Positions 1 through 17,041 of a DNA stretch of 36,519 nt are shown here, piece by piece. The position numbers and the translations under genes were made by a program. Source of the stretch: Armatimonadota bacterium. GTDB taxonomy: Bacteria; Sysuimicrobiota; Sysuimicrobiia; Sysuimicrobiales; Humicultoraceae. The notes below the pieces were generated by a model. The model was not told the origin of the DNA and searched no databases. It saw only the letters and a list, made by a program, of their open reading frames with translations. Position 1 is the first letter of the stretch; each line of letters opens with the position of its first letter. The DNA is taken from contig JBBIJB010000017.1 of NCBI GenBank assembly GCA_037446215.1, positions 1-36,519 on the forward strand, given 5' to 3'.

Positions 1-249
1 CGTCGTGCGGCTCTCGATGAACTGCGCGTGGCCGCCGAGCTGCGCCATGCCGGCCTCGAACGAGGCGCGCGTGCGCGTGCTCGAGAAGAAGAATAGCATC
101 GCCAGCACCTTGTCGCGAAGGTAGGCGTGCTCCAGCCCGAGCGCGCGCTTCCGCTTCAGGTCGAACGCCACGTCCAGAAGCGTGTCTATCTCTTCCTTGG
201 TCCACTCCTGCAGGGTGACCAGATCCTTCCCGCGCAGGTGAGTCTGCAT
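1..249 (-). CDS. Ornithine carbamoyltransferase-family protein, 5' part only (runs off the window edge; absent from the ORF track)
   Basis: Manual translation from the ATG at 249 gives MQTHLRGKDLVTLQEWTKEEIDTLLDVAFDLKRKRALGLEHAYLRDKVLAMLFFFSSTRTRASFEAGMAQLGGHAQFIESRTT. It contains the carbamoyl-phosphate-binding STRTR-x-SFE motif, and an AGGAGG Shine-Dalgarno lies just upstream. Confidence 0.9.
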   Translation of the reverse strand, partial: MQTHLRGKDLVTLQEWTKEEIDTLLDVAFDLKRKRALGLEHAYLRDKVLAMLFFFSSTRTRASFEAGMAQLGGHAQFIESRTT

Positions 250-294
250 GGTGCTACCTCCTCGTTGTGCTCATCCGGCCCTTCCCGGGGCGAC

Positions 295-1248
295 CTACTC
301 GGCGGCTCCCAGGATCAGCGCCAGCAGCGCCATCCGCACCACGACCCCGTTGAACGCCTCGGGCCAGTACCTGGCGTGCCGGGTGGGGTCGACGTCGGTC
401 GTCAGCTCGTCCATCCGTGGCAGCGAGTGCAGCACGATCGCGCTTCCCTTGCCCCGCTCCGCCAGCAGCTTGCGGGTCACCTTGTAGGCGGCCGGGGTGA
501 GCCCGACGTCGCCCGAGCGCTCGTCGCGCGACTTGGTGTAGTCCGGCTGGACCACCGGCTCCATGTAGATCACGTCGGCCTGGCCGATGACCTCCTCGAT
601 CGAGGCGACCTCCTTGTACTTGACGCTGCGCTCGTCCAGCTCGGCCTTGAACTCGGCGGTCAGCGACATCTCCGGGGGCGAGATCACGAACGCCTCGTTG
701 TCGAACTGGGACATCGCGTAGAGGATGGAGTGCATCGTCCGCATCCGCATGTCGCCCACGCAGGCGATCTTGAGGCCGTCTATCGTGCCGAGCTCCTTGT
801 AGATCGTGTAGAGGTCGATCAGCACCTGGGTGGGGTGCTCGCCCCAGCCGTCGCCGCAGTTGATGACCGGGACCGAGGCCCACTTGGCGGCCTCGTGGGG
901 CGCGCCCTGCTGGAAGTGGCGCATCGCGATCACGTCGCCGTAGTACTCGAGCATGTGGACGGTGTCCTTGATCGACTCCTGGTAGAAGTCGCCGGCGCGC
1001 GTCATCTTGGCGTCGGAGAAGCCGAGCACGCTGCCGCCCAGCCTTATCATCGCGGCCTCTGTGGCGAGGCGGGTGCGGGTGCTGGGCTGGTAGAACGCCG
1101 TCACCAGGGTCTTCTCCTTCAGCAGGTCCCCGTTGCGGCGGTCACGCGCGTAGTGCTTCAGGTCGTCTGCGACCTGGAAGACCCTGAAGAACTCGTTCCG
1201 CTCGAACTCCTTGAGCGAGAGGATGTCACGTCCCAGAAAGCTCCTCAT
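295..1248 (-). CDS. Aspartate/ornithine carbamoyltransferase-family protein (ATCase-like, substrate uncertain)
   Basis: 317 aa with FYQPSTRTR, ESIKDT, MRH, GDGWGEHPTQ, VGDMRMRTMHS and HSLPR motifs. GGAGG SD upstream. Confidence 0.9.
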   Translation of the reverse strand: MRSFLGRDILSLKEFERNEFFRVFQVADDLKHYARDRRNGDLLKEKTLVTAFYQPSTRTRLATEAAMIRLGGSVLGFSDAKMTRAGDFYQESIKDTVHMLEYYGDVIAMRHFQQGAPHEAAKWASVPVINCGDGWGEHPTQVLIDLYTIYKELGTIDGLKIACVGDMRMRTMHSILYAMSQFDNEAFVISPPEMSLTAEFKAELDERSVKYKEVASIEEVIGQADVIYMEPVVQPDYTKSRDERSGDVGLTPAAYKVTRKLLAERGKGSAIVLHSLPRMDELTTDVDPTRHARYWPEAFNGVVVRMALLALILGAAE

Positions 1249-1299: not shown

Positions 1300-2748
1300 C
1301 TACCGCCTGATTCCCGTGAAGAGCACGACCACGTTCTCCCCGGGGGCCACGCCCCCCTGCCGGGCCAGCTCCACCAGCCCCGCGAACCCCGACGAGCCGG
1401 TGTGGTCCACGTCTATCCCCGTATCGGCCCGGGCCTGCTCGTTCGCCTCGACGAGCGTCTCCTCCGAGGCCAGGACCGGATAGCCGCCGGTGGTCACCAT
1501 CCCGCGCACCACCGCCACCCAGTCGTAGGTCTCGTCGTCTAGGATCCCGTGGGCGATGCTGCTCGGCTCCTCCTCCCACGGCCACATGAACTCGGAGCGG
1601 TGCGCCGCGGCGTAGTCGAGCACCTCCGCCACCGCCGGCGACGCCGCGTGCTCGAGCATGGCGTCGGCCGCCTCTCGGTAGCCGTCGCCCCGCGGCCGGA
1701 TCCCTTCTCCTGCGAGCCGCTCCAGAATCCGCGCCGCCACCAGGTCGTAGGCCCTCTTGAGGGGGAACCCGCCCCGGGTCTGCACGGCGTGGACGCGCGG
1801 CATGGCGCGAAGCGCGCCCAGCCGCACCGCGTCCTGCAGCCCCTGGATGCACGAGCTGGCCAGCGCCCCTCCGCCCACCTGAACGAACAGGCGGTCCATC
1901 CGGCATCCCGATGCCCGCATCTGCGCCGCGATCTCGTAGCCGAGCGTCAGCCCGCCTTCGATCGTCAGGCCGTTCTCGTTGCCCTGGCAGGTGAAGGGGA
2001 GGGCGCCCGCGGCCAGTGCCTGGCGCAGCCGGTGGTAGGTGGGGTCTCCGGGGACGCCCTCCCGGCGGGGACAGACGTTGAGCCGCGCCCCCAGCCGCCT
2101 CAGCCGCTCGACCACCCCGGGGTCGGCGGAGGTGGGGATGAATACGTCGAGGGTGCGGCCGCCCGCGCGCGCCACAACCGCGGCGGCCAGCGCGGCGTTG
2201 CCGCAGCTGGCGATCGCCAGGTCGCGGCTCCTCTCATCCTCGCCGACCAGGCCGCTCTGCTCGGCCACCTCGATCTGAAGGAGCAGCCCCATCAGGTGGC
2301 GGGCCTTGTGCGACCCCGAGACGTTGCCGGTCTCGTCCTTGATCCACACGCCCCCCTCGGCCGCGAAGCCGAGGCGCGAGCCCAGGGCATCGCTGCGGGA
2401 GAGCGGGGTGATCGAGAAACCCTTACCGTCGACACCCGCTACCGCGCGGTCGAGTTGCTCTACGAGCCCGACGTACTCCTCGTCGGAGAGGCCGTGGGAG
2501 CGGGCCTGATGGTAGGAGTAGAAGAGCCGGCGGAAGGCGAGGAATGGGTTCCGGCCCTCACTGGGGGGTTCCTCAGGGAAGCGAAGCAGCGAGGGGTCGA
2601 CCACCCTCGTCATCACGTGGTCGGCTCCGTCGCCGCTACTGGCGTTCGGGCACCTGTAGGGATAGGGCTCGTCCGATGGGGCGCGGTGGCCGCATCCCGA
2701 GCAGACCAGCGCCACCGGGGCTCCGCCCAGGCGGGTCGCCGTGCTCAC
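1300..2748 (-). CDS. Fold-type II PLP-dependent enzyme, threonine synthase-like (482 aa)
   Basis: The start is probably the GTG at 2748, overlapping the upstream stop as GTGA. Motifs: N-terminal CSGC...[17 protein letters not shown] (PLP lysine), [16 protein letters not shown] and C-terminal VVLFTG. The upstream 500 aa of the 982-aa track ORF are shadow of the neighbouring gene. Confidence 0.85.
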
Positions 2749-4244
2749 AGCCCGGCCAGGACCCCGGTCCTGGAGTTGAACTCCTCGATCATCCGGTCCC
2801 AGGCGGGCAGGACCTCCCGCATCCCCTTCCAGAAAGCCTGCGGCCGCCGCGCCACGAACTCCTCGACCGAGACTCCCTGCTGCTCGACCCAGGTGAAGTA
2901 GCCGAGGTTGAAGACACGCTCGCGGTCGCGCAGCGTCATCTCGACCAGGCTGTCTGTGGAGGCGCCGAGCAGGTACTGCCCGAAGGTCTCGCCCGCGGCC
3001 ACCGCGTCGAAGCCGCCCGGGAAGCACCGCGCGAGCGCCTTCTCGCGCTCCGTCCCGTACATCTCTGCGCTGTCGGTGGCGACGGTCACGATGACGTCCT
3101 CGCGGCCCATCCCGTAGTACTTGGCGGTCTTTATCGCGGCCAGGACGTTGCAGATCGACGAGAAGCCCAGCGACGACAGCCCCTCTATGGTCTCCTGGGG
3201 CACGCCTCTGCGCTCGCGCAGGTAGGCCCGCCCGGCGTCGGTGTTCAGCAGCACGTCCAGCCGGTCGGTGGCGTGGTCGGAGATCGCGACGGCCACGTCG
3301 GTGTTCATCACGTTGTGGATCAGGGGGATGTGCTTGTCCCCTATCCCCTGGATGTTGTGCTCGCCGAAGCCGTTGTAGAGCATCGTGGGGCACTCCAGGG
3401 CCTCCACCGCCACGACCAGCGCGCCGAAGGAGTCCTTGAGGTAGTCGCCGGCGCCCAGGGTCCCGGCGGAGCCGGAGGCCGAGACGAAGGCGCGCAGCCG
3501 CAGCCCGGGCTCGCCCTCTGCCATCCCCTCGAACACCCTTCCCAGGGCCGCCCCAGTGCAGGCGTAGTGGACGAGGTGGTTGCCGAACTCCGAGAACTGG
3601 TTGAAGATGATGCTGTCGGGATCGCGCGACAGCTCGGCGCACTTGTCGTAGATCTCCTTGACGTTGCTCTCCGAGCCGGGCGTACGGATGATGTCCGCGG
3701 GGTCGGCGACCCAGCGATCGAGCCAGGCGAACCGCTCCCTGCTCATCCCCGCCGGCAGCACCGCCACGCCGCGGCAGCCCATGATCCGTGAGATTGCCAC
3801 GCCCCCGCGCGCGTAGTTGCCGGTCGACGGCCACACCGCCCGGTGTCTGGTTGGGTCGAACTGGCCGGTGATGATCCGTGGGGCGAGGCAGCCGTAGGCG
3901 GCCAAGACCTTGTGGGCGCGGATCATCGGGAACCGATCCCCCAGCGCAACCACTATGCGCGCCTCGGTGCCGGTCAGCGAGGACGGCAGCACCAGGTGCT
4001 GCGGAACCTCCACGCGCGACCGCCGGTCCGCGCCGTTGTACCAGTGGACGCGGAACAGGTTCAGCGGGTGGGGGGCGTCCGGATCCACCGATCCGAGCAG
4101 CGTGTTGACCTTCTCCGGGATTCCATTCGGATCGGAGAGCTGCGCGAAGGTCGGGAGCACTATCTTCTGCTCCCGGAAGCGCCCGACAGTGCGATCGTAG
4201 CTGGTCGCGTCTACGAGCTTCCGCTCGAGTCCAAGTCGTTCCAT
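2745..4244 (-). CDS. Fold-type II PLP-dependent enzyme, cysteine synthase/tryptophan synthase beta-like (about 499 aa)
   Basis: Motifs [10 protein letters not shown] (PLP lysine), [26 protein letters not shown] and HNIQGIGD. The ATG at 4244 has GGAGGT 6 nt upstream. Confidence 0.85.
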
Positions 4245-4379
4245 CCACACACCTCCAGATTAGCCGGCACGAGCCCGGGTGGAGCCCCGGGGCAGGCGCG
4301 CCGCGGGCCGGCGCTCGCGCCGGCCGCCCGGTGTTCCGCAGGATATGGCATCGCTCTCGAAGGGATCCTATTCCGGTTG

Positions 4380-4408: not shown

Positions 4409-5425
4409 TCAGAACCGCCCGTCGGCGAAGGCGTCTATCATCGCCCCGACGTCATCGCCCAGCGGATAGAGCACCGGACAGGTACAGCCGGACTCAACAT
4501 ATTCGCGGACCTTTGCGCGGCACTCGTCGGGCGTACCCGATGCCGAGATCATCTGGACGGCGTCGTCGGGCACCAGCCGCATCGCCCTGTGGATCTCCTC
4601 CGGCCCGGCAGGCCAGGTCAGGACCTTCCCTATCTCCTCTATGAGGCCGGGATCTATGCCGCTCGCCTTCATTATGTGCGGCTGCTGGCCCAGGTACTGC
4701 GTCAGCAGCTCGCGAGCCCGGTCGAGCGCGACCTCGCGGTTCTCGTCCAGGGAGCAGACCACGAGCTGGGGCCGGTCTATCTCGGAGGCATCGCGGCCGG
4801 CCCTCTTGGCGCCGGCGGCCAGCGCCTCCATCGCGGCCCTGTTGTACGCGGGGCCCACCATGTAGTTCAGCAGCACGCCGTCGGCGATCTCGCCGGCCAG
4901 CTCCATCATCTTCATGCCCGTGGCGCCGATGTATATCGGAACGTCCTTGGGCGAGCGATCGCCGTGGACGATGTCTATCTCGATGTCGCTGACGTGGACG
5001 AACTCGCCCTCGAAGGTGACGCGCTCCATGGCGAGGAGCCGGCGCGTCACATCCACTACCTCGCGCATCGCCGAGAGCGGCTTCTTCCTGTCTATCCCCA
5101 CCTTGGAGGCCAGCGGATCCCACCAGGCTCCGATGCCGAGCATGATCCTCCCGGGGGCGAGGTCGTCCAGCGTCGAGAAGGTGGCCGCCAGCAGGCCCAC
5201 GTTGCGCGTCCAGTTGTTTACGACGCCGGAGCCGACCTTGATGCGGTCCGTGACCGCGGCGTAGGCGGCCATCGGCACCGTGGCCTCACGGACGAGGCGG
5301 CTCTCGGCCTGCCAGACCGCCTCGAAGCCGCGCTCCTCCGCGTAGCGCACGTACCCCATCCCGTCGCGGATCGGGTGCTTGTCCTGCAGGTAGAGGGCCA
5401 CCCTGCCCTTGCTCGACTGCGGCAT
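4409..5425 (-). CDS. LLM-class (luciferase-like) oxidoreductase, Mer-like, possibly F420-dependent
   Basis: 338 aa from the ATG at 5425 with a [27 protein letters not shown] and [25 protein letters not shown] closely resemble methylene-H4MPT reductase (Mer)-type LLM motifs. Confidence 0.85.
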
Positions 5426-5427
5426 CT

Positions 5428-6756
5428 CTAAAGTCCCTCCATTGGGTCGAATCGGTGAGGGCCGATCTCGGCCAGCCGCTCCCAAAGATCGATGCTCACG
5501 CATGTCGCCTCGGCGCCTATCTGATCCTGGTCCATGGCGGCCATCCGGAAGCCGAGGAGCGACCACTCACCCGCCACCATCACGTCGCGCACGAGGAGGC
5601 TGTCCAGCCCGAACACCCAGTGGCCGGCCAGGTTCCCCGCGCTGACAGGGGTGGGCGAGGGGTACTCCAGCACGACCAGGTCGGCCGGCGCGCCCGGCGC
5701 GATCGTGCCGAGCAGGGGCTCGCCGAAGAGCCGTCCTGCCAGCCTGGCGTTGGCGGCCATCCTCTCCAGCGGCCAGGTGATGCCCACGGTGGGGTCGTCC
5801 TCCCTCAGGCGGAAGTAGGCGGTCCTGGACTCATCCATCATGTTGGCGCCTATGCCGTCGGTGCCGATCACCACCCGGTCCTTGATCCTGCGCACGGGCG
5901 CGCGCCCGATCGAGTTGTTCATGTTCGAGGTAGGGTTGTGGGCGACCGACGCGCCGCTGGCCTCGAGGATCTCCATCTCGATCTCGTCGAGGTGCACGCA
6001 GTGTATCAGCAGCGCCTCGGGGCCGAGCGCGCCCGCGTCCTGGAACCGCTGCAGGACGCGCTTCCCGTGGCGGGCCACGCAGTGGCGCTGGTCGAGGGCG
6101 TCCTCCGCGACGTGGACGTGTATTCCTGCGCCCGTTTCGCGTGCCAGATCGACGCAGGCGGCGAGCGTCTCCTGCGAGAGCGTGAACGAGGCGTGGGCGC
6201 CGACCATGCCCCGCGCCATCCGGTGTCGCGAGCGGAGGAACCGCCGGTTCTCAACCAGCCCGGCGCGGGCGCGCTCCGGGCCGTCGCGGTCGGTCACCTC
6301 GTAGCAGAGCACCGATCGCAGCCCGACCTCCTGGAGGGTCTCGGCGATCACGTCGAGCGATCCGTCGATCGCGTTGGGCGAGGCGTGGTGGTCTATGATC
6401 GTCGTCGTACCCGAGCGCAGCGCCCCCATCGCCGCCGCCATCGCCGATGACCTGATGCTGTCCTCGTCGAGCGCGCGGTCGAGCCGCCACCAGATCCGCT
6501 GCAGTATCTGGAGGAAGTTGGAGGGGGGCTCGAGGTCGTAGGGCGCGCCGCGAGCGAGCGCGGAGTAGACGTGGGTGTGGGCGCAGACGTTGCCGGGCAT
6601 TACCAGGCACCCGGAGCAGTCGCGCCGGTCCAGGCTGGGGGCCGCAGGCCCCAGCGACTCGATCCGGTCGCCCTTGACGGTGATGTCGGTCTCGACCACG
6701 GTCACGGGATCTATCGAGGTGACCACCCGGCCTCCGCACAGCGAGTAGGTACTCAC
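5428..6756 (-). CDS. ssnA: SsnA-type metal-dependent amidohydrolase
   Basis: About 442 aa from the GTG at 6756. Motifs [62 protein letters not shown] and GTDG are characteristic of the SsnA subfamily. Confidence 0.85.
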
Positions 6757-6763
6757 GGCAACA

Positions 6764-9397
6764 TCATCCCTCGCCTTCGGTGGACCGGCCGGGAGCGGCG
6801 CCCAGCCTGGGGTTGGCGAAGCGCGCCGCCGGGGAGTCACGCATGGGCAGCCGCGTACGGCCCACCCCGTCGAACGCGCGCAGGGCACCCGCGACCGCGG
6901 CCGCGGTTGGAACCATAGTTATCTCACCGACGCCCTTGGCGCCGTAGGGGCCCTCGGGCTGGTGCTCCTCGACGAATATGCACTCGACCGCGGGCATCCC
7001 CGAGGGCGGCACCATGTTCAGCGACTTGAGGGTCGTCGTGACCGGCATCCCTGCCTCGACAACGAACTCCTCGGAGAGCGCGTAGCCGAGCCCCATGTGC
7101 ACGCCGCCCTCGACCTGGCCCTCCAGCAGCGTGGGGTTGATCACCCTGCCGACGTCGTGCGCTGCGACGACCTTCTCTATCCGGCCCTCGCCGTCGAGGA
7201 CCACTACCTGGGTAGCCCACCCGTACGCGAAGTGGGTGACCGGGCTCTCCACGCCCTCGGCCCCGGGCTTGGTGGTCCAGTCCACGACGACCTCGCCGTA
7301 GAACTCCCGGCCAGCCAGGTCCTCGAGGGCGCGGCCGTCCAGGGCGGCGCGAAGCTTGCGGGCCGCCTCGATCACCGCCCGGCCGCCGAGTGCCGTGGCG
7401 CGGGAGGCGGTGGTCTGGCCGGTCTGCAGCTCCCGCTCGGTGTCCACCCTCACCCTGATCGCCTCCAGGGGGATGCCGAGCTCCTCGCAGGCGATCTGCG
7501 AAAGGGCGGTGTGGCACCCCTGCCCCATCTCGGTCCACGAGTGGAAGAGGGTCACGGTGCCGTCGCCCTCGGGCCTCAGGATCGCCCTGCCGTACTCTGT
7601 CAGCCCGTTGCCCACGCCGGTGTTCTTCACGCCGCACGAGATCCCGGCGAAACGCGCCGAGCGGTAGGCGTCCCGAACGGCCAGCAGCGTCCTCTTGACG
7701 CCGACGCCCGGTCCCAGCACCTGCCCGGTGCAGTAGACATCGCCTTCGGCGAGCGCGTTGCGCCATCGGATCTCCCAGCCGTCGATCCCGACCCTGTCGG
7801 CGAGGACGTCGAGCAGCCCTTCGATCGCGAACGTGACCTGGGGTACGCCGAACCCCCGCATGGCGCCGCACGGCGGGTTGTTCGTGTAGACCGCCTTCGC
7901 CTCGACATCCACGTTCGGCACCTTATAGGCGCCGCAGGCGTGGCCGGCCGCCCTCTCCAGGACCTTGTCCCCGACGCTGGCGTAGGCGCCGGTATCCCCG
8001 ACGATCCTGGCGCGTACCGCGGTCAGGCGGCCCTCCTCGTCGCAGCCGACCGTGTACTCCATGGTGAGTGGGTGGCGCTTGGGGTGGAACCTCATGCTCT
8101 CGGCCCTCGAGAGGGTGAGCAGCACCGGGCTTCCGGTCCGAAGGGCGAGCAACGCGGCGTGCCCCTGCACGCTCAGGTCCTCCTTGGCGCCGAAGGCGCC
8201 TCCTGTGGAAACCTGCGTGACCCGCACCTTCTCCTCGGACAGCGCCAGCAGCGAGGCCACCTGGCGGCGGTCGTCCCAGACGCCCTGCCCCTGCGAATAG
8301 AGGTGGATCCCGCCCTCGTCGATCGGGACCGCCAGGGCCGCCTCGGGCTCTAGGAAGGCGTGCTCTATCATCTGGGTCCGGTAGGTCTCGCCGGCGACGT
8401 GGGCCGAGGCGGCCAGCGCCGCGTCCACATCCCCCCGCTTGACCCTCGAGGTGGACAGGATGTTGCCGCGGTCGTGCAGCCTGGGGGCCTCCGGGGAGAG
8501 GGCCTGTTGGGGATCGGTTACCGGCTCCAGGATCTCGTACTCGATCTCGACGAGCTTGGCCGCCTCCCTGGCCGCGAAGCGGGTTGTCGCCGCGATCGCC
8601 GCCACGACGTCTCCCACGTACGCCGTGGTCTCACCCTCGGCCACGAACTGCCGCCAGTCCCTGGTGATCAACCCCTGCGTCCGCTCTCCCGGCACGTCCT
8701 TCCAGGTCACCACGGCCGCGACGCCCGGGTGGGCCTGTGCGCGGGAGGTGTCTATGCGCACGACCCGAGCGCGTGGGAAGTCCGAGGTGCGAAGCGCGCC
8801 GTGCAGCAGGCCCGGTCTCCTCATGTCCGCCACGAACGGCTTCGTGCCCAGGACCAGCTCGCCGCCCTGGTAGCGGGCGCTCCGGCTCCCGACCCGCCCG
8901 CCGCGCTCCATCTCGGGGAGGAGCCCGTCACGCCGCGCCCTCGCGGCCATCTCTATCGCGTCGGCGATCTTGACGTAGCCGGTGCAGCGGCAGAGGTTGC
9001 CGGCGAGCACGCGGGTGATCTCGTCCCTGGTCGGGGCGGGACTCCTCTCCAGCAGCGCCTCGGCCTTCATCACTATCCCTGGCGAGCAGAAGCCGCACTG
9101 GGCGGCCCCGGCGGCCAGGAAGCACTCGGCCCACTGCCGCAGGTGCTCCGGCGGGAGCCCCTCCTGGGTCTTCACGTGCTTGCCCGCGAACCTGGTGGCC
9201 GGCTGGGCGCAGGAGACGACCGCCCGGCCGTCGACCATCACGGTGCAGGCACCGCACGAGCCCTCAGGCGCGCACCCCTCCTTGACCGTCGTGATCCCGA
9301 GCCGCTCCCTCAAGAGCTCGAGCAGGCTCTCGCCCTCCCTCACCTCGACCGTGATGGGCGTGCCGTTGAGCACGAACTGCACCGTCAGTTGCTCCAC
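6764..9397 (-). CDS. Fused 2Fe-2S + molybdopterin-binding hydroxylase, resembling the selenium-dependent xanthine dehydrogenase family (about 877 aa)
   Basis: GTG start at 9397 with a GGAGGAGG SD. N-terminal GCAPEGSCGAC...C, QCGFC and NLCRCTGY 2Fe-2S motifs are followed by Mo-domain motifs EHAFLEPE, GGAFGAKED, HPKRHP, GAMRGFG, GQTTASR and PYGAKGVGE. Confidence 0.85.
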   Translation of the reverse strand: MEQLTVQFVLNGTPITVEVREGESLLELLRERLGITTVKEGCAPEGSCGACTVMVDGRAVVSCAQPATRFAGKHVKTQEGLPPEHLRQWAECFLAAGAAQCGFCSPGIVMKAEALLERSPAPTRDEITRVLAGNLCRCTGYVKIADAIEMAARARRDGLLPEMERGGRVGSRSARYQGGELVLGTKPFVADMRRPGLLHGALRTSDFPRARVVRIDTSRAQAHPGVAAVVTWKDVPGERTQGLITRDWRQFVAEGETTAYVGDVVAAIAATTRFAAREAAKLVEIEYEILEPVTDPQQALSPEAPRLHDRGNILSTSRVKRGDVDAALAASAHVAGETYRTQMIEHAFLEPEAALAVPIDEGGIHLYSQGQGVWDDRRQVASLLALSEEKVRVTQVSTGGAFGAKEDLSVQGHAALLALRTGSPVLLTLSRAESMRFHPKRHPLTMEYTVGCDEEGRLTAVRARIVGDTGAYASVGDKVLERAAGHACGAYKVPNVDVEAKAVYTNNPPCGAMRGFGVPQVTFAIEGLLDVLADRVGIDGWEIRWRNALAEGDVYCTGQVLGPGVGVKRTLLAVRDAYRSARFAGISCGVKNTGVGNGLTEYGRAILRPEGDGTVTLFHSWTEMGQGCHTALSQIACEELGIPLEAIRVRVDTERELQTGQTTASRATALGGRAVIEAARKLRAALDGRALEDLAGREFYGEVVVDWTTKPGAEGVESPVTHFAYGWATQVVVLDGEGRIEKVVAAHDVGRVINPTLLEGQVEGGVHMGLGYALSEEFVVEAGMPVTTTLKSLNMVPPSGMPAVECIFVEEHQPEGPYGAKGVGEITMVPTAAAVAGALRAFDGVGRTRLPMRDSPAARFANPRLGAAPGRSTEGEG

Positions 9398-11850
9398 GAA
9401 CCCTCCTCCGCCCTGCCTCCGGCCTCTCCCGTACCGCCCAGCTCCCCCTGCCCCAGGGCCAGCCCGAAGTAGTGCGGGACCGGCTGGGGTCCGGGCACGT
9501 CGGGCGCGGGCGGCGGCCCGCCCGACCTGACAGGCGGCCTCAGGCCGATGAGGTCGTCCGGCCTGACCGGCGCCCGGTTCAGCTCCCTGCCGGTGGCGTC
9601 CCGAAGCGCCGCGACCACCGCCGCGGTGGACACCACCGTGGACATCTCGCCCACGCCCTTCGCGCCGAAGGGAACGTCGGGCTCGGGCTCCTCGACCAGC
9701 ACCGACTGCACCGGCGGCATGTCGAGGATGGTCGGTATCAGGTAGTCCGTGAAGGAGGCGTTGAGGATCCTGCCCTCGCGAAGCTGCACCTCCTCCATCA
9801 ACGCCAGGCCGATGCCCATCGAGGTGCCGCCCTCTATCTGGCCCTCGACGCCCGCTGGGTTGAGCGCCCTGCCCACGTCGTGCGCGGCCGCGATGTGTAC
9901 CACCCGCGCGAGCCCGAGCTCCTCGTCCACCTCGACTACTGCCCGCTGCGCGGCGAAGCCGAAGCAGACGTGGACGTCGCCCTGGCCCCTGGCGTCCATC
10001 GGCTGCGTGCGGCGGTGGTGGTAGGTGCACTCGCCCTCGACCGGCGGATCGAGGAGATCGGCCACGGCGCAGAGGGCCTCGTCCCCTGCCAGGACCATGC
10101 CGCCCGCCAGCGCCAGCCCGTCGGCCGTGAGTCCTTCCGACTCGACGCGGCGGAGCGCCCGGCTGAGGAGCTCGTCCCTGACGGCCCTGCAGGCCATCTG
10201 CACCGCGCCCCCGGACATCATAGTCTGCCTGGAGGCCGAGGTGGATCCCGCCGAGCCCACCGCTGTGTCGGGGCGGGTCACCACCACGTGCTCGATGCCC
10301 AGCTCCTCCCGCGCGATCTGGACCAGCACCGTGTGCAGCCCCTGCCCCACCTCGGCGGCGGCGCTGTGGACCTCGGCCACCGGCCCGGCCGGCCCGCCGA
10401 AGACCCGGACGCGCGCCGCGGCCGAGTCGTCGAAGCCGCCGCTGTAGGCGATGTTCTTGTAGCCCACCGCGAACCCCACCCCGCGCCGGATCCGCTCGCC
10501 CCGCGAGACGTTTCCGGCGCCTCCGGGAAGGAATAGCGGGTCGGCGGCACCGCGCGCCGCCTCCGGGATCGGGATCTCCGCGCAGCGCCGTATCACCTCG
10601 GCCACCGGGGCGCTGCCCGTGATCACCTGCCCGGTGGGCAGGACCGACCCCTGGGAGAGCGCGTTCCTCAGTCGCATCTCCACCGGATCGATCCCCAGCG
10701 CCTTCGCCAGCTTGTCCATCTGACCCTCGTACGCGAAGCAGACCTGCGGGGCGCCGAAGCCGCGCATGGCTCCGCACGGCGGGTTGTTTGTGTATACCCG
10801 GGTACCCTCGATCAGCGCATTGGGGACCTCGTAGGGCCCGGTCGCGAAGGTGCTGGCGTTGCTTATCACCGCGGCGCCCGAGGAGGCGTAGGCGCCGCCG
10901 TCCATCAGGATCCGCGCGTAGACGCTGACGAGCTTCCCGTCGCGCGTCGCCCCGTGGCGCATCCAGATGCGGGAGGGGTGGCGGTGGACGTGCCCGAGGA
11001 ACGACTCCTCACGGCCGTAGACGATCCTGACCGGCCTCTGGGTGCTTAGCGCCAGCATGCAGGCGTGGATGTGCATGCTGACGTCCTCCCTGGCCCCGAA
11101 CGCCCCGCCCACTCCCGCCAGGTAGAGCCGGACCTTCTCCTTGGGCAGGCCGAGGCAGGGCGCGACCTGCTCCTGGTCCACGTGCAGCCACTGGGTGGCG
11201 ACGTAGAGGTCGACCCCCCCGTCGTCCGCCGGTATCGCGAGCCCGGACTCCGGTCCCAGGAATGCCTGGTCCTGCATCGCGGTCTCGTAGTACCCCTCGA
11301 TCCAGACGTCGGCCCTGGCGAGCGGGTCGCCGTGCTCAATCCGGATGTGGCGCAGCACGTTGCCGTAGTCGTGGATCCTGGGAGCGCCGGGCAGGAGCGC
11401 CTGCTCCATGTCGGTGACCGGCGGCAGCACCTCGTAGTCCACCGCGATGAGCCCGGCCGCCTCCCGCGCCACCTCGAGATCCACCGCCGCCAGGATCGCG
11501 ACCGGCTCGCCCGCGAACCTCACCCGGTCCCAGGCCAGGACCGGCTGCTCTGCGAACTCCAGCCCGAAGGTCCGGCGGCCCGGAACGTCACCGGCCAGTA
11601 GGACGGCGTGCACGCCGGCGTGCGCAGCGGCCTTCGATATGTCCACCGACCTGATCCTCGCGTGCGGGTGAGGGCTGCGCAGCGTGTGGCCCCAGAGCAT
11701 CCCATCGGCCCACAGGTCGCTCCCGAACTGGAACGCCCCCTTGACCTTCGGCACCCCGTCTATCCGGCGAACGCTCTCGCCCACGCCGCCCCCGGCCGCC
11801 TGCCTGGCCTCAGCCGGCGATTCGCGCCGCAGCCCTGCGGGCTTCAGCAT
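9385..11850 (-). CDS. pucD: Xanthine dehydrogenase molybdenum-binding subunit (PucD type)
   Basis: Motifs GVGESVRRIDG, QAFLGPE, GGAFGAREDV, GAMRGFG, LPGGAGNV...RRGVG...KNIAYSGGFDD, GSTSASRQT and PFGAKGVGE. Start is ATG 11850 (GAGGAGG SD) or GTG 11784. Confidence 0.85.
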   Translation of the reverse strand: MLKPAGLRRESPAEARQAAGGGVGESVRRIDGVPKVKGAFQFGSDLWADGMLWGHTLRSPHPHARIRSVDISKAAAHAGVHAVLLAGDVPGRRTFGLEFAEQPVLAWDRVRFAGEPVAILAAVDLEVAREAAGLIAVDYEVLPPVTDMEQALLPGAPRIHDYGNVLRHIRIEHGDPLARADVWIEGYYETAMQDQAFLGPESGLAIPADDGGVDLYVATQWLHVDQEQVAPCLGLPKEKVRLYLAGVGGAFGAREDVSMHIHACMLALSTQRPVRIVYGREESFLGHVHRHPSRIWMRHGATRDGKLVSVYARILMDGGAYASSGAAVISNASTFATGPYEVPNALIEGTRVYTNNPPCGAMRGFGAPQVCFAYEGQMDKLAKALGIDPVEMRLRNALSQGSVLPTGQVITGSAPVAEVIRRCAEIPIPEAARGAADPLFLPGGAGNVSRGERIRRGVGFAVGYKNIAYSGGFDDSAAARVRVFGGPAGPVAEVHSAAAEVGQGLHTVLVQIAREELGIEHVVVTRPDTAVGSAGSTSASRQTMMSGGAVQMACRAVRDELLSRALRRVESEGLTADGLALAGGMVLAGDEALCAVADLLDPPVEGECTYHHRRTQPMDARGQGDVHVCFGFAAQRAVVEVDEELGLARVVHIAAAHDVGRALNPAGVEGQIEGGTSMGIGLALMEEVQLREGRILNASFTDYLIPTILDMPPVQSVLVEEPEPDVPFGAKGVGEMSTVVSTAAVVAALRDATGRELNRAPVRPDDLIGLRPPVRSGGPPPAPDVPGPQPVPHYFGLALGQGELGGTGEAGGRAEEGSWSN

Positions 11851-13174
11851 TGATCCCCTCCTCGTCGGCGCCGACCAGGCGGCCGTCACGGACGACCCGC
11901 CTTCCCTCGACCAGCAGGTGGCGGGCGCGCAGCGGCGTGCAGAACAGCAGCGCCGCGACAGGGTCGGTGCCGGCGCCGGCAAGCTCGAGCCTGTCCACCC
12001 CGAACAACGCGACGTCCGCCCGCCTGCCGGCGGTGAGCGCCCCGATGTCGTCTCGCCCGAGGCAGGCGGCCCCTCCGCGGGTGGCCACCCGCAGCGCCTC
12101 CCTGCCGCTCATCATGCCTGCGCCGCCCACGCGCGCGATCAGCATCCCTGTCCTCGCCTCGGCGAGCAGGCTGCCGCCGTCGTTCGAGGCCGAGCCGTCC
12201 ACGCCGAGCCCGACCCTGACCCCGCAGTCCAGCAGGCCGCGAACCGGCGCGACGCCCGAGCCCAGCCGCAGGTTGGAGGTGGGGCACCACGCCACCCCGG
12301 TCGCGCTGCCGGCCAGCAGCCGGACGCTCGGCCAGTTGAGGTGCACGCAGTGTGCCAGCCAGACGTCGGGCCCCACCCAGCCGAGGTCCTCCAGCAGCTC
12401 TATCGGCCTCCTGCCGAACCTCTCGCGGCAGTAGGCATCCTCGTCGAGGGTTTCGGCGATATGGGTGTGCAGCCTCACCCCCAGCCTGCGTGCGAGCACG
12501 GCGGACTCCCGCATCAGCCGCTCGGTCACGGAGAACGGCGAGCACGGCGCCACCGCGATCCGCACCATCGCTCCAGCGCCAGGATCGTGGAAGCGGCGCA
12601 CCGCCTCCTCGGTCTGGGCAAGGATCACGTCGGCGTCCTGCACGATCGCGTCCGGGGGCAGCCCTCCTTGGGAGGCGCCGAGGTCCATCGAGCCGCGGCA
12701 AGGGTGGAACCGCAGCCCGATCTCGCCGGCGGCCTCTATCTCGGCCAGGAGGAGGCCGATGCCGGATGAGGGATCGCTCCTGGGGAAGATGTAGTGGTGG
12801 TCGGTGGTCGTCGAGCAGCCCGACAGCGCCAGCTCGGCCAGCCCCAGGCGGGCGCCCGCTCGCACCCACTCCTCGTCCACGCCGGCCCACACGGGGTAGA
12901 GGGCGCGCAGCCACCCGAACAGCGGCTGGTCCTGCGCCATCACCCGGGTGAGGGTCTGGTAGAGGTGGTGGTGGGCGTTGACCAGCCCGGGGAGCGCCAC
13001 GGTGCCGCCACCGTCGATCCGCTCGGTCTCGCCCGCCGCGATTCGAGGAGGCGTCCCGCGCCCGACCCAGGCGATGACCCCGTCCTCGATCAGCAGCGAG
13101 CCGCCCGGTATCTCGGTCCCGGCGTCGTCCATCGTGACGACGACCTCGCAGCCCTCGATGAGGACCCTGCTCAT
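11810..13174 (-). CDS. 8-oxoguanine deaminase-like amidohydrolase
   Basis: Motifs AHHHLYQTLTR, DHHY, RGSM, APCSPFSV (typical of this subfamily), HTHIAET, CPTSNLRLGSG and GVDGSASND. Start is ATG 13174 or GTG 13192. Confidence 0.85.
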   Translation of the reverse strand: MSRVLIEGCEVVVTMDDAGTEIPGGSLLIEDGVIAWVGRGTPPRIAAGETERIDGGGTVALPGLVNAHHHLYQTLTRVMAQDQPLFGWLRALYPVWAGVDEEWVRAGARLGLAELALSGCSTTTDHHYIFPRSDPSSGIGLLLAEIEAAGEIGLRFHPCRGSMDLGASQGGLPPDAIVQDADVILAQTEEAVRRFHDPGAGAMVRIAVAPCSPFSVTERLMRESAVLARRLGVRLHTHIAETLDEDAYCRERFGRRPIELLEDLGWVGPDVWLAHCVHLNWPSVRLLAGSATGVAWCPTSNLRLGSGVAPVRGLLDCGVRVGLGVDGSASNDGGSLLAEARTGMLIARVGGAGMMSGREALRVATRGGAACLGRDDIGALTAGRRADVALFGVDRLELAGAGTDPVAALLFCTPLRARHLLVEGRRVVRDGRLVGADEEGINAEARRAAARIAG

Positions 13175-13207
13175 CGGCTCACGCTCCGGCACAGGCCATC
13201 TTCGTCG

Positions 13208-13681
13208 CTACCCGACTTCCGGCCGCATCCGCTCGGCGGCCAACCGCACCGCGTCCAGGATCTTGGCGTACCCGGTGCACCGGCAGAGGTTCCCCGAGAG
13301 CGCCTCCCGGATCTCTGCCTCGTCGGGCCGGGGGTTACGGGCCAGCAGGTCCGTGGCCGCGACGACGAGCCCCGGCGTGCAGAAGCCGCACTGCACCGCG
13401 CCCGCCTCCAGGAACGCTTCCTGCACCGGATGCAGTCCCTCTTCGTCCGCGAGACCCTCGACGGTTCGCACCTCGCGCTCGTGCGCCTGCGCCGCCAGCA
13501 CCAGGCAGGCGCACACCACCTCGCCGTCCAGCCAGACCGAGCAGGAGCCGCACTCCCCCTGCTCGCAGGCGTTCTTTGAGCCGGGCAGGTCCAGGTGCTC
13601 GCGCAGCATGTGCAGCAGGCTGGCCCCGGGCCAGACGTCGGCCGTCCTCCATTCACCGTTGACCTTCGCGCGGATCAGCAT
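13208..13681 (-). CDS. pucE: Xanthine dehydrogenase 2Fe-2S subunit (PucE/CoxS type)
   Basis: Motifs ACEQGECGSC...C, QCGFCTPG and GNLCRCTGY. Confidence 0.9.
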   Translation of the reverse strand: MLIRAKVNGEWRTADVWPGASLLHMLREHLDLPGSKNACEQGECGSCSVWLDGEVVCACLVLAAQAHEREVRTVEGLADEEGLHPVQEAFLEAGAVQCGFCTPGLVVAATDLLARNPRPDEAEIREALSGNLCRCTGYAKILDAVRLAAERMRPEVG

Positions 13682-14580
13682 CCCTCTACCCCGGAGTCGT
13701 GGCCGGCGGCCGCACCGCTGCGCCTGTCGGCGAGCGCCCAGGCCAACGCGCGGCGGGCGAGCACCGCGCAGACGTGGCGCCTGTACGCCGCGCTGCCCCG
13801 CAGGTCGTCAATGGGCGAGGATGCGGCCGCCGCGAGCGCGCCGAACTCCTCGACCGCCGCGCCGGGCACCGGGGCGGCGGGATCGTCCCACGCCCCGGCC
13901 TCGGCCAGGGCGGACGCGGCGAGCTCCTCCGCGCGCGGCGCCCTTAGGACGGTCGGGCCCACCGAGCCCATGGAGAGCCGCACCGCCCGCCGCTCCTCGT
14001 CCACGACCAGGCACAGGCTCGCCACGGCGATCACCATCGCGTTGCGGGGGCCCACCTTCGAGAAGGAGCCGGGGCCGCGGGTCGGCCGCCACCGCGCGCC
14101 GACTATCAGCTCGTCCGGGGCGATGGCGGTCTTCTTGGGGCCGGTCAGGAAGGCGTCCCAGGGCATTCGCCTCGTGCGCCCCCCTGACCGGGCAAGCAGG
14201 ATCTCCGCGTCGTAGGCGGCGAGCGGCGCCAGCGCGTCACCCGCGGGCGAGGCCGTTCCCAGGTTCCCCCCCACGGTGCCACGGCTGCGGATCTGGGGAG
14301 ACCCCACGGCGCGCGAGGCCTGCGCCAGGGGGGCGAACTCCGCCATCTCGCGCACCACCCTCGCGTAGGTCATCCCGGCGCCGAGAAAGACCCACCCGTC
14401 CTCCCGACCCCAGCGCCGCAGCTCCTCCAGGCGGCCGAGGTCTATGATGGCGGCGGGCCTCCGCCGCCCCGAGTTCAGCTCGACCATCAGGTCGGTCCCT
14501 CCCGCGATCGGAAGCGCCTCGGGCCGATCGGATTTCATCTCGAGCGCCTCGGCCAGGGTTGCGGGTCGCAGTATCTCCAT
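13675..14580 (-). CDS. pucC: Xanthine dehydrogenase FAD-binding subunit (PucC/CoxM type)
   Basis: Motifs PIAGGTDL, QIRSRGTVGGNL, ASPAGD and PIDDLRGSAAYR. ATG 14580 is preceded by a GAGGTG SD. Confidence 0.9.
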   Translation of the reverse strand: MEILRPATLAEALEMKSDRPEALPIAGGTDLMVELNSGRRRPAAIIDLGRLEELRRWGREDGWVFLGAGMTYARVVREMAEFAPLAQASRAVGSPQIRSRGTVGGNLGTASPAGDALAPLAAYDAEILLARSGGRTRRMPWDAFLTGPKKTAIAPDELIVGARWRPTRGPGSFSKVGPRNAMVIAVASLCLVVDEERRAVRLSMGSVGPTVLRAPRAEELAASALAEAGAWDDPAAPVPGAAVEEFGALAAAASSPIDDLRGSAAYRRHVCAVLARRALAWALADRRSGAAAGHDSGVEGC

Positions 14581-14598
14581 GATCACCTCGGCGTCCTT

Positions 14599-15180
14599 CT
14601 AGGGCGCGCCGGCATCGTCCTCGCGCCTGAACACCGGCAGCACCCCTAGGTGGTGGACGCCCTCGATCTCGGCCCCCTCCAGGAGTAGCGCCGCCGTGGC
14701 GACCACGGAGCCGCCGGCCTGCTCGACGAGCTCGGCCATGGCACGGAGCGTCTCTCCGGTGCTGACGATGTCGTCGACGAGGCATACGCGCCGCTCGCGG
14801 ACCTTCAGCGCGTCGCGGCCGTCCATGAACAGCTCCTCCTCGCTCTTGGCCGTGATCGGCCTGTATCTCACCGAGAGGGGCGAGAGCATGAACGGCCTGA
14901 TCTCCTTACGGCACACCACGTAGGGCTTCATCCCCGAGTAGGCGGCGAGCGCGTGGGCGAGCGGTATCCCCTTGGTCTCGGTGGTGACGAATATCTCGCA
15001 CCCGCTAACGGCCTCTACGAGAGCGCGCGCCGCGTGGTCTATGACCTCGGTGTCGCCCAGGCTGTAGTAGTAGGCGATCCACGTGTCCGGGGCGACCTGG
15101 ATCAGCGGCAGCTTGCGCGACACGCCGGCTATCTCGAGGTCGTATGTGGGCTGCCCGCGGTACGGAACGACGTGGGCCAT
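14599..15180 (-). CDS. Type I phosphoribosyltransferase (adenine/xanthine PRT-like)
   Basis: Motifs ETKGIPLAH, VVCRK and the PRPP-binding loop LVDDIVSTGET. Confidence 0.85.
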   Translation of the reverse strand: MAHVVPYRGQPTYDLEIAGVSRKLPLIQVAPDTWIAYYYSLGDTEVIDHAARALVEAVSGCEIFVTTETKGIPLAHALAAYSGMKPYVVCRKEIRPFMLSPLSVRYRPITAKSEEELFMDGRDALKVRERRVCLVDDIVSTGETLRAMAELVEQAGGSVVATAALLLEGAEIEGVHHLGVLPVFRREDDAGAP

Positions 15181-15319: not shown

Positions 15320-17041
15320 ATGGACCTCGGGAGGCTCATCAGGGTCGCACGGGGGAAGGAGCCCGCCGACCTCCTGCTCGCCAACGCGCGCGTCGTGGAC
15401 CTCTACGGCCAGAGGGTGCTGGAGGCGGACGTCGCGGTGCTCGGCAGCCGGATCGCCGGCCTGGCCGTGGGGGGGAAGCGGGGCTCCTACGGGGCGCGGG
15501 AGGTCAGCGATCTGGGCGGCTCGTACCTCGCCCCTGGCTTCATAGACGGCCACGTGCACATCGAGAGCTCCATGGTGGGGGTGGCGGAGTTCGCGCGCGC
15601 CGTGGTCCCGCGCGGCACGACGACCGTGGTCGCCGATCCTCACGAGATCGCGAACGTGCTCGGGATGAGCGGCATCCGGTACATGCTGCAGGCGGCCAAG
15701 TACAACCCGCTGAGCGTCTACCTGATGGCCTCCTCCTGCGTTCCGGCGAGCCCCTTGGAGAGCGCTGGCGCCGAGATCTCGGCGTATGACCTCGAGGCCC
15801 TGATGCAGGACAAGTGGGTGCTGGGGCTGGCCGAGATGATGAACATGCCCGGGCTGCTGGCCGGGGACGCCGAGGTCCTGGCCAGGATAGCGGCCGCCGG
15901 CGGCAGGCCGATCGACGGCCATGCGCCCGGGATGGAGGGCCTCGACCTCAACGCCTACGTGGCCGCCGGGGTCCGCTCGGACCACGAGAGCACCACACCC
16001 GAGGAGGCCAGGGAGAAGCTGGAGCGGGGGATGGTGGTCATGGTGCGCGAGGCCACCGCCGCGAGGAACCTGGAAGCCCTGCTGCCACTCGTCACCCCCG
16101 CCAACGCCAGGAGGTTCCTGTTCGTCACAGACGACCGCACTCCCGAGCACCTGCTCCGCGAGGGCCACATCGACTCGATGGTCCGCCAGGCGATCGGGCT
16201 CGGGCTCGACCCCATGCTCGCGCTGCAGATGGCCAGCCTGAACGCCGCGGAGTACTTCGGGCTGCGCCACCTGGGGGCGGTTGCGCCGGGCCGGACCGCC
16301 GACCTCGTGGTCTTCGACGACCTGACCGCGCCGCGGCCGCGGCTGGTCTACAGGGCGGGCCGGCTCGCGGCCCGCGACGGCGAGCTGCTTCCCTACGAGC
16401 GGCCGGAGCGGCCGCCGGCGCTGCGCAGCTCGATCGACGTGCCGCGCGGCGCGCTCCGCTTCAGGATCCCGGCCTCGGGAAGCCGCATCCGTGTCATTGA
16501 GGTGGTGCCGGACCAGCTGGTGACCGGCTGCGCCGAGGCCTCCCCCGCGGTGGAGGGCGGCGAGGTCACCGCCGATGTCGGGCGCGACCTCCTGAAGCTC
16601 GCCGTCATCGAGAGGCATACCGGCAGCGGCCGGGTCGGGCTCGGCATCGTCCGGGGCTTCGGCCTGAAGCTGGGGGCGCTGGCCTCGTCGATCGCCCACG
16701 ACGCCCACAACATAGTGGTGGTGGGCACCAGCGACGAGGCGATGCGCGAGGCCGTCGAGATCGTAATCGAGATGCGGGGCGGCGTTGTGGCGGTGGCCGG
16801 CAGGGAGACGGCCCGGCTGCCGCTGCCGATCGCCGGGCTGATGTCCGAGGAGCCGATCGAGGCCGTCGCCGGCATGATGCGGGAGCTGCTGGCGATGGCG
16901 AGGCGGATGGGATGCTCCCTCGAGGACCCGTTCATGACGCTGTCGTTCATGGCCCTCTCGGTCATCCCGGAGCTCAAGCTGACCGATCGCGGCCTGGTGG
17001 ACGTGCGCAGCTTCGAGGTCGTTCCCCTCTTCCTCGACTGA
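15320..17041 (+). CDS. ade: Adenine deaminase
   Basis: 573 aa with DGHVHIESS, ADPHEIANV, LAEMMN, IDGHAP, SDHE, TDD, IERH, SSIAHDAHN and LSVIPELKLTDRGL. Confidence 0.95.
   Translation: MDLGRLIRVARGKEPADLLLANARVVDLYGQRVLEADVAVLGSRIAGLAVGGKRGSYGAREVSDLGGSYLAPGFIDGHVHIESSMVGVAEFARAVVPRGTTTVVADPHEIANVLGMSGIRYMLQAAKYNPLSVYLMASSCVPASPLESAGAEISAYDLEALMQDKWVLGLAEMMNMPGLLAGDAEVLARIAAAGGRPIDGHAPGMEGLDLNAYVAAGVRSDHESTTPEEAREKLERGMVVMVREATAARNLEALLPLVTPANARRFLFVTDDRTPEHLLREGHIDSMVRQAIGLGLDPMLALQMASLNAAEYFGLRHLGAVAPGRTADLVVFDDLTAPRPRLVYRAGRLAARDGELLPYERPERPPALRSSIDVPRGALRFRIPASGSRIRVIEVVPDQLVTGCAEASPAVEGGEVTADVGRDLLKLAVIERHTGSGRVGLGIVRGFGLKLGALASSIAHDAHNIVVVGTSDEAMREAVEIVIEMRGGVVAVAGRETARLPLPIAGLMSEEPIEAVAGMMRELLAMARRMGCSLEDPFMTLSFMALSVIPELKLTDRGLVDVRSFEVVPLFLD

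Follow-up and report, generated by a model that had tools for sequence, protein, structure and literature searches.

The closest described system is the reductive urate (2,8-dioxopurine, 'yanthine') pathway. According to the main text of Li et al. (PMC12507026) and the preprint of Liu et al. (bioRxiv 10.1101/2025.04.24.650524), XdhD-YgfM, YgfK, SsnA, and HyuA lead to 2,3-diureidopropionate, from which one ureido group is cleaved with phosphate by YgeW and the other is hydrolyzed by YgeY; YgeX then converts diaminopropionate to pyruvate, and ATP is provided by YqeA. Production of ATP from 2,3-diureidopropanoate by YgeW plus YqeA in vitro was reported by Liu et al. (bioRxiv 10.1101/2025.04.24.650524). 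The present analysis concerns a DNA stretch of 36,519 nucleotides (hereafter the window), which comprises positions 1 to 36,519 of contig JBBIJB010000017.1 (C17) in the Armatimonadota bacterium assembly GCA_037446215.1, and in particular two carbamoyltransferase genes at its start. The first encodes a protein resembling aspartate carbamoyltransferase (ATCase; positions 295-1248), called ATCl, and the second encodes another carbamoyltransferase (positions 1-249), called CT2.

From the comparison of this locus with the urate pathway, we estimate a probability of roughly 0.6 that the two ureido groups of 2,3-diureidopropionate are removed by phosphorolysis, one by CT2 and the other by ATCl, so that ATCl would replace YgeY and a second ATP would be gained. 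Phosphorolysis of both groups with a yield of two ATP had also been put forward in a first-pass annotation of the window, and it is likewise a prediction here. Gene content, gene order, conservation, and residue changes were observed in the sequences, and every substrate named below, like the ATP yield, is predicted from them.

The source genome (G000) was assembled from a metagenome and comprises 149 contigs totalling 2.16 Mb, with 91% completeness and 1.9% contamination; hence 'not found' in it is not to be read as 'absent'. The window starts at base 1 of its contig, which places the gene pair at an assembly break; the G+C content was 68-74%. Searches within the same family covered 24 relatives (22 without G015 and G024, which are unpublished). 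The same-genus genome G006 is 95% complete, and the family genomes G011, G013, and G014 are 96-98% complete. A GTDB search with one genome per species confirmed at least 587 ATCl relatives, and the best 80 of these were used for context: 74 loci had room downstream, 77 served for the upstream neighbor, and 47 (the long loci) had at least 6 kb on both sides. The tree was a quick IQ-TREE run supported by SH-aLRT values only, in which the regular-expression row labels 'canon' and 'noncanon' were wrong for some rows.

The open reading frame (ORF) at 295-1248 is real, with the Pfam domains OTCace_N and OTCace and a G+C content at third codon positions (GC3) of 0.97, and the ORF at 1-249 matches OTCace_N; the tandem of two different carbamoyltransferases described in the first-pass annotation stands. 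The best solved relative of ATCl was the ATCase of Pyrococcus abyssi (1ml4, 252 bits). An AlphaFold model based on 65 sequences had a pLDDT of 95.4 and, in Foldseek, a TM score of 0.88-0.90 to the ATCases 1ml4, 1ekx, and 5g1n, which identifies the ATCase fold. The NCBI equivalog models were divided, as ATCl scored 262 bits with the ATCase model TIGR00670 (cut-off 236.95) and was thus above it, and 226.8 bits with the bacterial PyrB model NF002032 (cut-off 263), below it.

ATCases use L-aspartate, whose side chain is bound by K84, R229, and Q231 and whose alpha-carboxylate is bound by R167. When ATCl was aligned with E. coli PyrB, the carbamoyl-phosphate site (S52-T-R-T-R, R105, H134, and Q137) was found to be retained together with R167, and these residues were invariant in 81/81 orthologues; the residue following R105 was H in 80 of the 81. 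In alignments to E. coli PyrB and 1ml4, K84, R229, and Q231 were all replaced. The kept HPTQ and GD...RT.HS segments, the HSLP in place of HPLP, and the YMEPVVQ in place of Y.TR.Q that had been read from the sequence at first pass were all reproduced in these alignments, and the loss of K84 from the 80s loop (KKGET to DFYQES) is a further change. D87, Y89, and E91 of this loop were invariant in 81/81 sequences, as were E230, P231, Q234, D236, and Y237 within the segment YMEPVVQxDY, the whole of which was invariant or nearly so in 81/81. Several of the replacement residues are acidic or neutral (D87, E230, D236, Y89, and Q234). A second register for the 240s segment was produced by MAFFT, with TKSRDER set against TRVQKER; it was rejected as the functional one on the grounds that its positions vary (K, Q, or A occurs at K239 and R, A, or V at R244) and that the modelled strand stops at M229. 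With the strand end at M229, E230-P231 fill the position of T228-R229 in the model, and R229 and Q231 are lost whichever register is used.

In the tree, ATCl formed a clade (SH-aLRT 99) within the starred group of 35 non-canonical ATCase paralogues, which have the 80s loop (S/T)R(A/S)GD in common, and E. coli PyrB with all 41 rows filtered as canonical formed a separate branch. Paralogues with this loop and without TRxQ (P0008-P0057 and others) are wide and diverse, and ATCl is one tight branch among them. In a library clustered at 50% identity, the full-length ATCl orthologues made up two clusters (83% and 78% identical), and the next full-length proteins were at most 51% identical.

It is highly improbable that ATCl is the housekeeping PyrB of the organism and merely adjoins catabolic genes. 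The pass with TIGR00670 would agree with such a role, as would the source genome itself, in which no canonical pyrB was found at its 91% completeness and pyrD, pyrF, and a phosphoribosyltransferase are present. Against it stand the replacement of K84, R229, and Q231, the score below the NF002032 cut-off, and the lack of any PyrI found in the source genome. Moreover, canonical pyrB was found in 0/24 family genomes, including ATCl-free ones and G011, G013, and G014, each of which has one carbamoyltransferase (that of G014, the one scanned, is an ornithine carbamoyltransferase, OTCase); the lack of pyrB is therefore a trait of the lineage. Neither carB nor pyrC was found in the source genome or in G006, although both pyrD and pyrF occur. 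Finally, in 5/5 other carrier genomes a canonical pyrB scoring 356-406 bits was found elsewhere in the genome, and their ATCl proteins scored 211-225 bits. PyrB identity was rejected on the basis of the active-site residues, the tree, and this coexistence with canonical pyrB; ATCl is not PyrB, as judged by comparison with other carriers and not within the source genome. The first-pass annotation had considered that the two proteins might be the only pyrB and argF of the genome. This fails for argF, since OTCases lie on contigs C111 and C118; as to pyrB, the lack of a canonical gene in the source genome is offset by its presence in the other five carriers.

The route to carbamoyl-aspartate in the family is a separate observation: G013 and G014 have carB, pyrC, pyrD, and pyrF and one carbamoyltransferase each, and no canonical pyrB in the 24 genomes accounts for it. 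Genes for SLH-domain proteins lie near pyrD-pyrF in two loci, L028 (G006:C33) and L029 (G014:C1), with a TonB-dependent receptor in L028, which hints at a diderm envelope.

The contig end truncates the CT2 gene. In a search of the genome for family members, its C-terminus (residues 170-324) was located at positions 2-469 of contig C100, followed by a carbamate kinase. The N-terminal piece was identical at 73/83 positions to residues 1-83 of the 325-residue orthologue in G006, and the C100 piece at 135/155 positions to residues 170-324, with about 86 residues in the gap. The complete G006 orthologue scored below every curated cut-off that was tried, namely those for OTCase (NF001986, 257.6 versus 306; TIGR00658, 240.3 versus 280.85), acetylornithine carbamoyltransferase (243 versus 288), and YgeW (NF005538, 193.8 versus 453; TIGR03316, 182.1 versus 500). 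Full-length CT2 was nearest to E. coli YgeW (38% identity in the alignment; 35% over 347 residues by tblastn), with tblastn scores of 197 bits to YgeW versus 123 bits to ArgI, and it was sister to YgeW in the tree (SH-aLRT 94). The motifs HCLP and DxxxSMG mark the ornithine site of OTCases, and the CT2 orthologue carries HPLP and YAKSWG. The families are indistinguishable from positions 1-249 because only the N-terminal carbamoyl-phosphate domain is present there. Of the OTCase-like label given to this gene at first pass, the carbamoyltransferase N-domain thus holds; OTCase identity was rejected, since the complete orthologue is below the OTCase cut-offs, has no HCLP, and is closer to YgeW. 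Judged by its sequence, the gene is better called YgeW-like than OTCase-like.

Orthologues of ATCl at 81-91% identity were found in 14/24 same-family relatives, and CT2 adjoins ATCl in 14/14 of these carriers (13/13 without G015). Beyond the family, the best 80 of the at least 587 relatives were 74-91% identical, and their genomes carry the labels Actinomycetota, Chloroflexota, Spirochaetota, Planctomycetota, Verrucomicrobiota-like, and others. The gene after ATCl was CT2 in 46 of the 74 loci with room downstream, an XdhD-like gene in 17, a kinase in 3, a gene for a pyridoxal phosphate (PLP) enzyme in 2, and another gene or none in 6. Directly upstream, a PLP enzyme of the type encoded at 1300-2748 was present in 33/77 loci, and the PLP pair was the commonest upstream neighbor. 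Among the 47 long loci, CT2 was present in 42, the PLP-497 type in 37, carbamate kinase in 36, an XdhD-like gene in 33, the PLP-454 type and an SsnA-like gene in 31 each, a luciferase-like (LLM) oxidoreductase in 22, a YgeY-like gene in 2, and a YgeX-like gene in 0; at least one purine-cluster marker was present in 44. Two loci without the XdhD and SsnA markers (L105 and L112) have the ATCl-CT2-kinase trio amid adenine deaminases, a GntR regulator, and a PnrA-type nucleoside transporter. In two Spirochaetota loci (L097 and L117), ATCl and a more divergent CT2 (50-51%) occur with a YgfK homologue (50-51%) and no LLM gene, so the twin-transferase module is not tied to the LLM variant. In a Frankiaceae locus (L063:1386-2580), the gene directly upstream of ATCl is a YgeX homologue (39% identity) and not the PLP pair, an exchange that fits diaminopropionate as the product. 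In L042 and L046, a YgeY-like gene (40% and 55% identity, respectively) lies beside ATCl-CT2-kinase.

The adjacency of ATCl and CT2 in 46/74 loci would also be expected if the two formed a hetero-oligomer, or if one lacked catalysis and served the other as partner or regulator, and active sites in the carbamoyltransferase family do lie between trimer subunits. We give this arrangement, which the first-pass annotation had raised, the least credence of all the alternatives, as both proteins have complete carbamoyl-phosphate motifs, many loci have ATCl with no adjacent CT2, and ATCl and CT2 fall on separate family branches.

The minus-strand genes from the phosphoribosyltransferase through both carbamoyltransferases run toward the contig start (Table 1). 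In G006, where the order is unbroken, the genes are PLP-PLP-ATCl-CT2-carbamate kinase-XdhD-like-SsnA-like-LLM, and the carbamate kinase follows the carbamoyltransferases in all complete relatives, as it does on contig C100 here. The XdhD sequence matched the 6764-9382 protein over residues 1-918 (tblastn, 218 bits). The best solved relative of the PLP enzyme at 1300-2748 had only 45 bits and that of the enzyme at 2745-4250, which is present in 55/80 related loci, had 58 bits; these remote matches allow no function to be assigned to either.

Table 1. Positions of the genes and ATCl motifs in the window, with the evidence for each assignment.
Feature	Position	Strand	Evidence and remarks
CT2, first 83 aa, cut by contig end	1..249	-	contains FFFSSTRTRASFE; OTCace_N 1.9e-20
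ATCl	295..1248	-	317 aa; Pfam OTCace_N 2.2e-44 and OTCace 3.6e-25
HSLPR replacing HPLPR	415..429	-	alignment; 81/81 sequences
YMEPVVQPDY replacing ATCase YMTRVQ (R229, Q231)	538..567	-	alignments; 81 sequences; modelled strand
GDMRMRTMHS, R167 equivalent kept	727..753	-	alignment; 81/81 orthologues
HPTQ	826..837	-	motif position
DFYQES 80s-loop motif replacing ATCase K83-K84-G-E-T	973..990	-	alignments to 1ml4 and E. coli PyrB
STRTR carbamoyl-phosphate motif, kept	1069..1083	-	alignment to E. coli PyrB; 81 orthologues
Fold-type-II PLP enzyme, distant threonine synthase/dehydratase likeness	1300..2748	-	PALP 9.2e-36; about 454-480 aa, start 2715-2748 uncertain
Fold-type-II PLP enzyme, distant cysteine synthase likeness, 501 aa	2745..4250	-	family scans
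Luciferase-like (LLM; Mer-like, F420-type) oxidoreductase	4409..5425	-	Bac_luciferase 2.1e-71; Mer models 184 and 179 bits, below cut-offs
SsnA-like amidohydrolase	5428..6759	-	NF005540 423 bits versus cut-off 444; 35% identity to E. coli SsnA, 251 bits
Fused 2Fe-2S and molybdopterin subunit, XdhD-like architecture	6764..9382	-	Fer2, Fer2_2, Ald_Xan_dh_C, MoCoBD_1/2
Second molybdopterin subunit, XdhA-like	9385..11982	-	XdhA 31% identity, 249 bits; start probably near 11800
8-oxoguanine deaminase family amidohydrolase	11810..13192	-	NF006055 618 bits versus cut-off 532
Xanthine dehydrogenase (XDH) 2Fe-2S subunit (13208-13681) and FAD subunit (13675-14586)	13208..14586	-	Pfam
Phosphoribosyltransferase	14599..15180	-	Pribosyltran 1.4e-10
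Adenine deaminase, divergent	15320..17041	+	Adenine_deam_C 5.5e-65

With E. coli proteins as tblastn queries against the whole 91%-complete genome, YgeY gave no match at E<=1e-3 and YgeX only a match of 56 bits. The catabolic role suggested for the two transcarbamylases at first pass gains support from these results, from the urate-type operon, and from the carbamate kinase on C100. In agreement with the first-pass annotation, Pfam scans of 32 ORFs of the window detected no pyr or arg gene. An oxamate carbamoyltransferase of the allantoin route was also considered, and general Pfam scans of the window turned up no allantoin-pathway genes. For YgfK, tblastn of the source genome gave only a partial match of 162 bits on contig C61; the YgfK/UacX place of the known clusters is occupied by the LLM gene, and the replacement of YgfK by a luciferase-like oxidoreductase in Chloroflexota is described in the main text of Li et al. 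(PMC12507026). No CofD (for F420 synthesis) was detected in G000, G001, G002, or G006; a score above cut-off was obtained in 1/7 same-genus relatives searched and, over the 15 relatives covered in the family, in G005 and G010 alone. The F420 label of the putative LLM reductase reflects family resemblance only, and its cofactor is uncertain.

Elsewhere in the genome, two HyuA homologues with 42% identity by tblastn (TIGR02033, 586 bits) were found outside the operon, on contigs C83 and C30. Carbamate kinases were found by tblastn on two contigs, C100 and C118. The separate OTCases are a fragment with HCLP on C111 and an enzyme on C118 that is 63% identical to E. coli ArgI. The latter gene is directly followed by the second carbamate kinase (G000:C118:2573-4683) in an arrangement that resembles an arginine-deiminase-type module.

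Contig C30 also has a second island (G000:C30:10776-26692) with another pair of non-canonical carbamoyltransferases, one ATCase-like (25763-26692; TIGR00670 200 bits, below cut-off) and one resembling acetylornithine carbamoyltransferase (19875-20897). Genes for a HyuA-like hydantoinase, an Amidohydro_3 enzyme, a protein with the polysaccharide-deacetylase fold, and a Liv-type ABC transporter lie there as well, together with putative FixC-like and ETF-like genes, named from their sequences, and one for a putative DAO-like oxidoreductase. This island may represent a second route of ureide or N-heterocycle catabolism.

In the proposed scheme, adenine deaminase, the 8-oxoguanine-type deaminase, and XDH would channel purines to urate, and reduction and opening of the ring would fall to the XdhD-like enzyme, LLM reductase, and SsnA-like hydrolase. 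A hydantoinase whose gene lies outside the operon, on C83 or C30, would then give 2,3-diureidopropionate. One ureido group would be taken off with phosphate by CT2 (1-249 plus C100), as in the YgeW step, and the other by ATCl at the step that in E. coli is hydrolysis by YgeY. Both carbamoyl phosphates would go to the C100 carbamate kinase, giving two ATP per purine, and the resulting 2,3-diaminopropionate would be deaminated, probably by the two PLP enzymes in the YgeX place. For ATCl, action on the N-alpha (2-ureido) group of 3-amino-2-ureidopropanoate is preferred, because the carbamoyl-phosphate site and the alpha-carboxylate arginine are kept and the beta-carboxylate binders are now invariant neutral or acidic residues. 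From this pattern, we infer that ATCl binds an N-alpha-carbamoyl amino acid with a non-carboxylate side chain.

This assignment bears on a dispute in the literature, since Li et al. and Liu et al. differ on the ureido group removed by YgeW, as noted in a commentary (PMC12990295). The product given by Liu et al. is 3-amino-2-ureidopropanoate (bioRxiv 10.1101/2025.04.24.650524), and the residue pattern of ATCl appears to fit their order better than that of Li et al. The pathway and the phosphorolytic pair could also be as proposed with the roles or their order swapped, or with another substrate. ATCl might, for example, take the first step by attacking diureidopropionate at its 2-ureido group, with albizziin as the product, which CT2 would then cleave like a short citrulline; where CT2 is absent, a PLP enzyme might eliminate urea from albizziin, and an LLM-type route may yield a different ureido intermediate. 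This alternative is unlikely, though it deserves more weight than any other considered here. It would account for the 17/74 loci in which ATCl has no adjacent CT2 and for the occurrence of ATCl with a kinase alone in some loci. It would also suit the position of the PLP pair as the commonest upstream neighbor of ATCl (33/77 loci), as a PLP enzyme requires a free alpha-amino group, which arises only when the 2-ureido group is cleaved. The product reported by Liu et al. and the presence of CT2 in 42/47 long loci speak against swapped roles, and the invariant acidic residues that stand where ATCases have K84 and R229 (E230, D236, and D87) make a cationic side chain a better match than a neutral one of the ureido kind.

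Several points weigh against the proposed scheme, in which CT2 acts first and ATCl replaces YgeY. Li et al. state that the 2-ureido group is the one that YgeW cuts (PMC12507026), an order that would leave a citrulline-like 3-ureido substrate for ATCl, contrary to the preferred assignment. They also observed only a small YgeW product peak (PMC12507026); phosphorolysis of ureido groups is thermodynamically poor, so that two rounds of it need a strong pull. The intermediates have been proposed to have the R (D) configuration (PMC12990295), in contrast to the L-aspartate of ATCases. As to the loci, the XdhD-like gene and not CT2 comes next after ATCl in 17/74, and no CT2 was seen in 5/47 long loci, so that ATCl is perhaps the main and not the second carbamoyltransferase there. 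A YgeY-like gene is also carried in 2/80 loci, and the replacement is thus not strict. The hydantoinase lies outside the operon, and the failure to find CofD in the source genome or in most genomes of the genus makes the upstream reductive step less certain than the LLM family label would suggest. Finally, ATCl passes TIGR00670, and no other ATCase candidate scored above any cut-off in the source genome.

A module that works in the anabolic direction is very unlikely: a ureido compound would be made from carbamoyl phosphate, or the module would supply carbamoyl phosphate for arginine synthesis in place of carbamoyl-phosphate synthase (CPSase). Carbamate kinase and transferase reactions are reversible, and the failure to find carB in the 91%- and 95%-complete genomes G000 and G006 would suit such a supply; the operon, however, consists of catabolic enzymes (XDH, deaminases, and SsnA), and the module is also carried by genomes whose pyrimidine genes are ordinary.

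A more specific form of the preferred scheme is possible and is put forward tentatively, as we hold it to be less probable than the scheme in general. ATCl would be an N-alpha-carbamoyl-2,3-diaminopropionate phosphorylase that replaces YgeY and doubles the substrate-level ATP per purine. ATCase chemistry is N-alpha-specific, and the swap would therefore mark the substrate of the YgeY step as 3-amino-2-ureidopropanoate. If this is true, the dispute over the first ureido group cut by YgeW would be settled, and the operon may also be a main carbamoyl phosphate source in a genus apparently without CPSase.

The locus offers a natural experiment on the disputed sequence of ureido cleavage, and it points to an altered energy balance in which two carbamoyl phosphates would be formed versus one in E. 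coli. The urate pathway was not worked out until 2025, for gut bacteria, and the variant described here occurs in genomes that bear the labels of at least five phyla, mostly environmental metagenome bins. ATCl is tightly conserved (74-91% across phyla in the best 80 of at least 587 relatives) and passes TIGR00670, so annotation pipelines based on this model will probably call it PyrB, and reconstructions of the pyrimidine pathway would be skewed as a result. A two-ATP module could also be of interest for the engineering of urate-degrading strains. In the main text of Li et al. (PMC12507026), gene neighborhoods are colored by PF00185 and PF00291 with subfamilies not split, and neither a second carbamoyltransferase nor different PLP enzymes in the urate pathway are mentioned there; a full-text literature search returned no paper on either. 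Only the LLM swap is already in print, and the exchange of YgeY for ATCl was not found in that search.

Compared with the known systems, the locus shares with the reductive urate pathway of E. coli and Clostridium a fused XdhD-like molybdenum enzyme, an SsnA-like hydrolase, and a YgeW-like carbamoyltransferase followed by carbamate kinase, together with the hydantoinase homologues 42% identical to HyuA that lie elsewhere in the genome. It differs from that pathway in having a luciferase-like oxidoreductase in place of YgfK, an ATCase-derived enzyme in place of YgeY, and two unrelated fold-type-II PLP enzymes instead of YgeX; neither YgeY nor YgeX was found. E. coli YgeW, a knotted carbamoyltransferase, is the nearest characterized relative of CT2, and the two have the blocks WAYxxSYxKPxSVPQ and VYxKSW and an adjacent carbamate kinase in common, whereas CT2 is about 70 residues shorter and carries HPFQ and HPLP at the sites of HPTQ and HCLP in YgeW. 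The catalytic chain of ATCase (PyrB; 1ml4 and E. coli) and ATCl have the same fold, 38-50% identity, the same carbamoyl-phosphate site, and R167, but K84, R229, and Q231 are replaced in ATCl, HSLP stands for HPLP, and ATCl belongs to a separate clade with other non-canonical paralogues; it has neither PyrI nor a pyr context and occurs together with a canonical PyrB in other genomes. The arginine deiminase pathway, with its catabolic OTCase and carbamate kinase, likewise couples ureido phosphorolysis to ATP synthesis, and the C118 enzyme is a true ArcB-type OTCase with its own kinase; the substrates of that pathway are different, whereas in the present locus two different transferases appear to feed one kinase.

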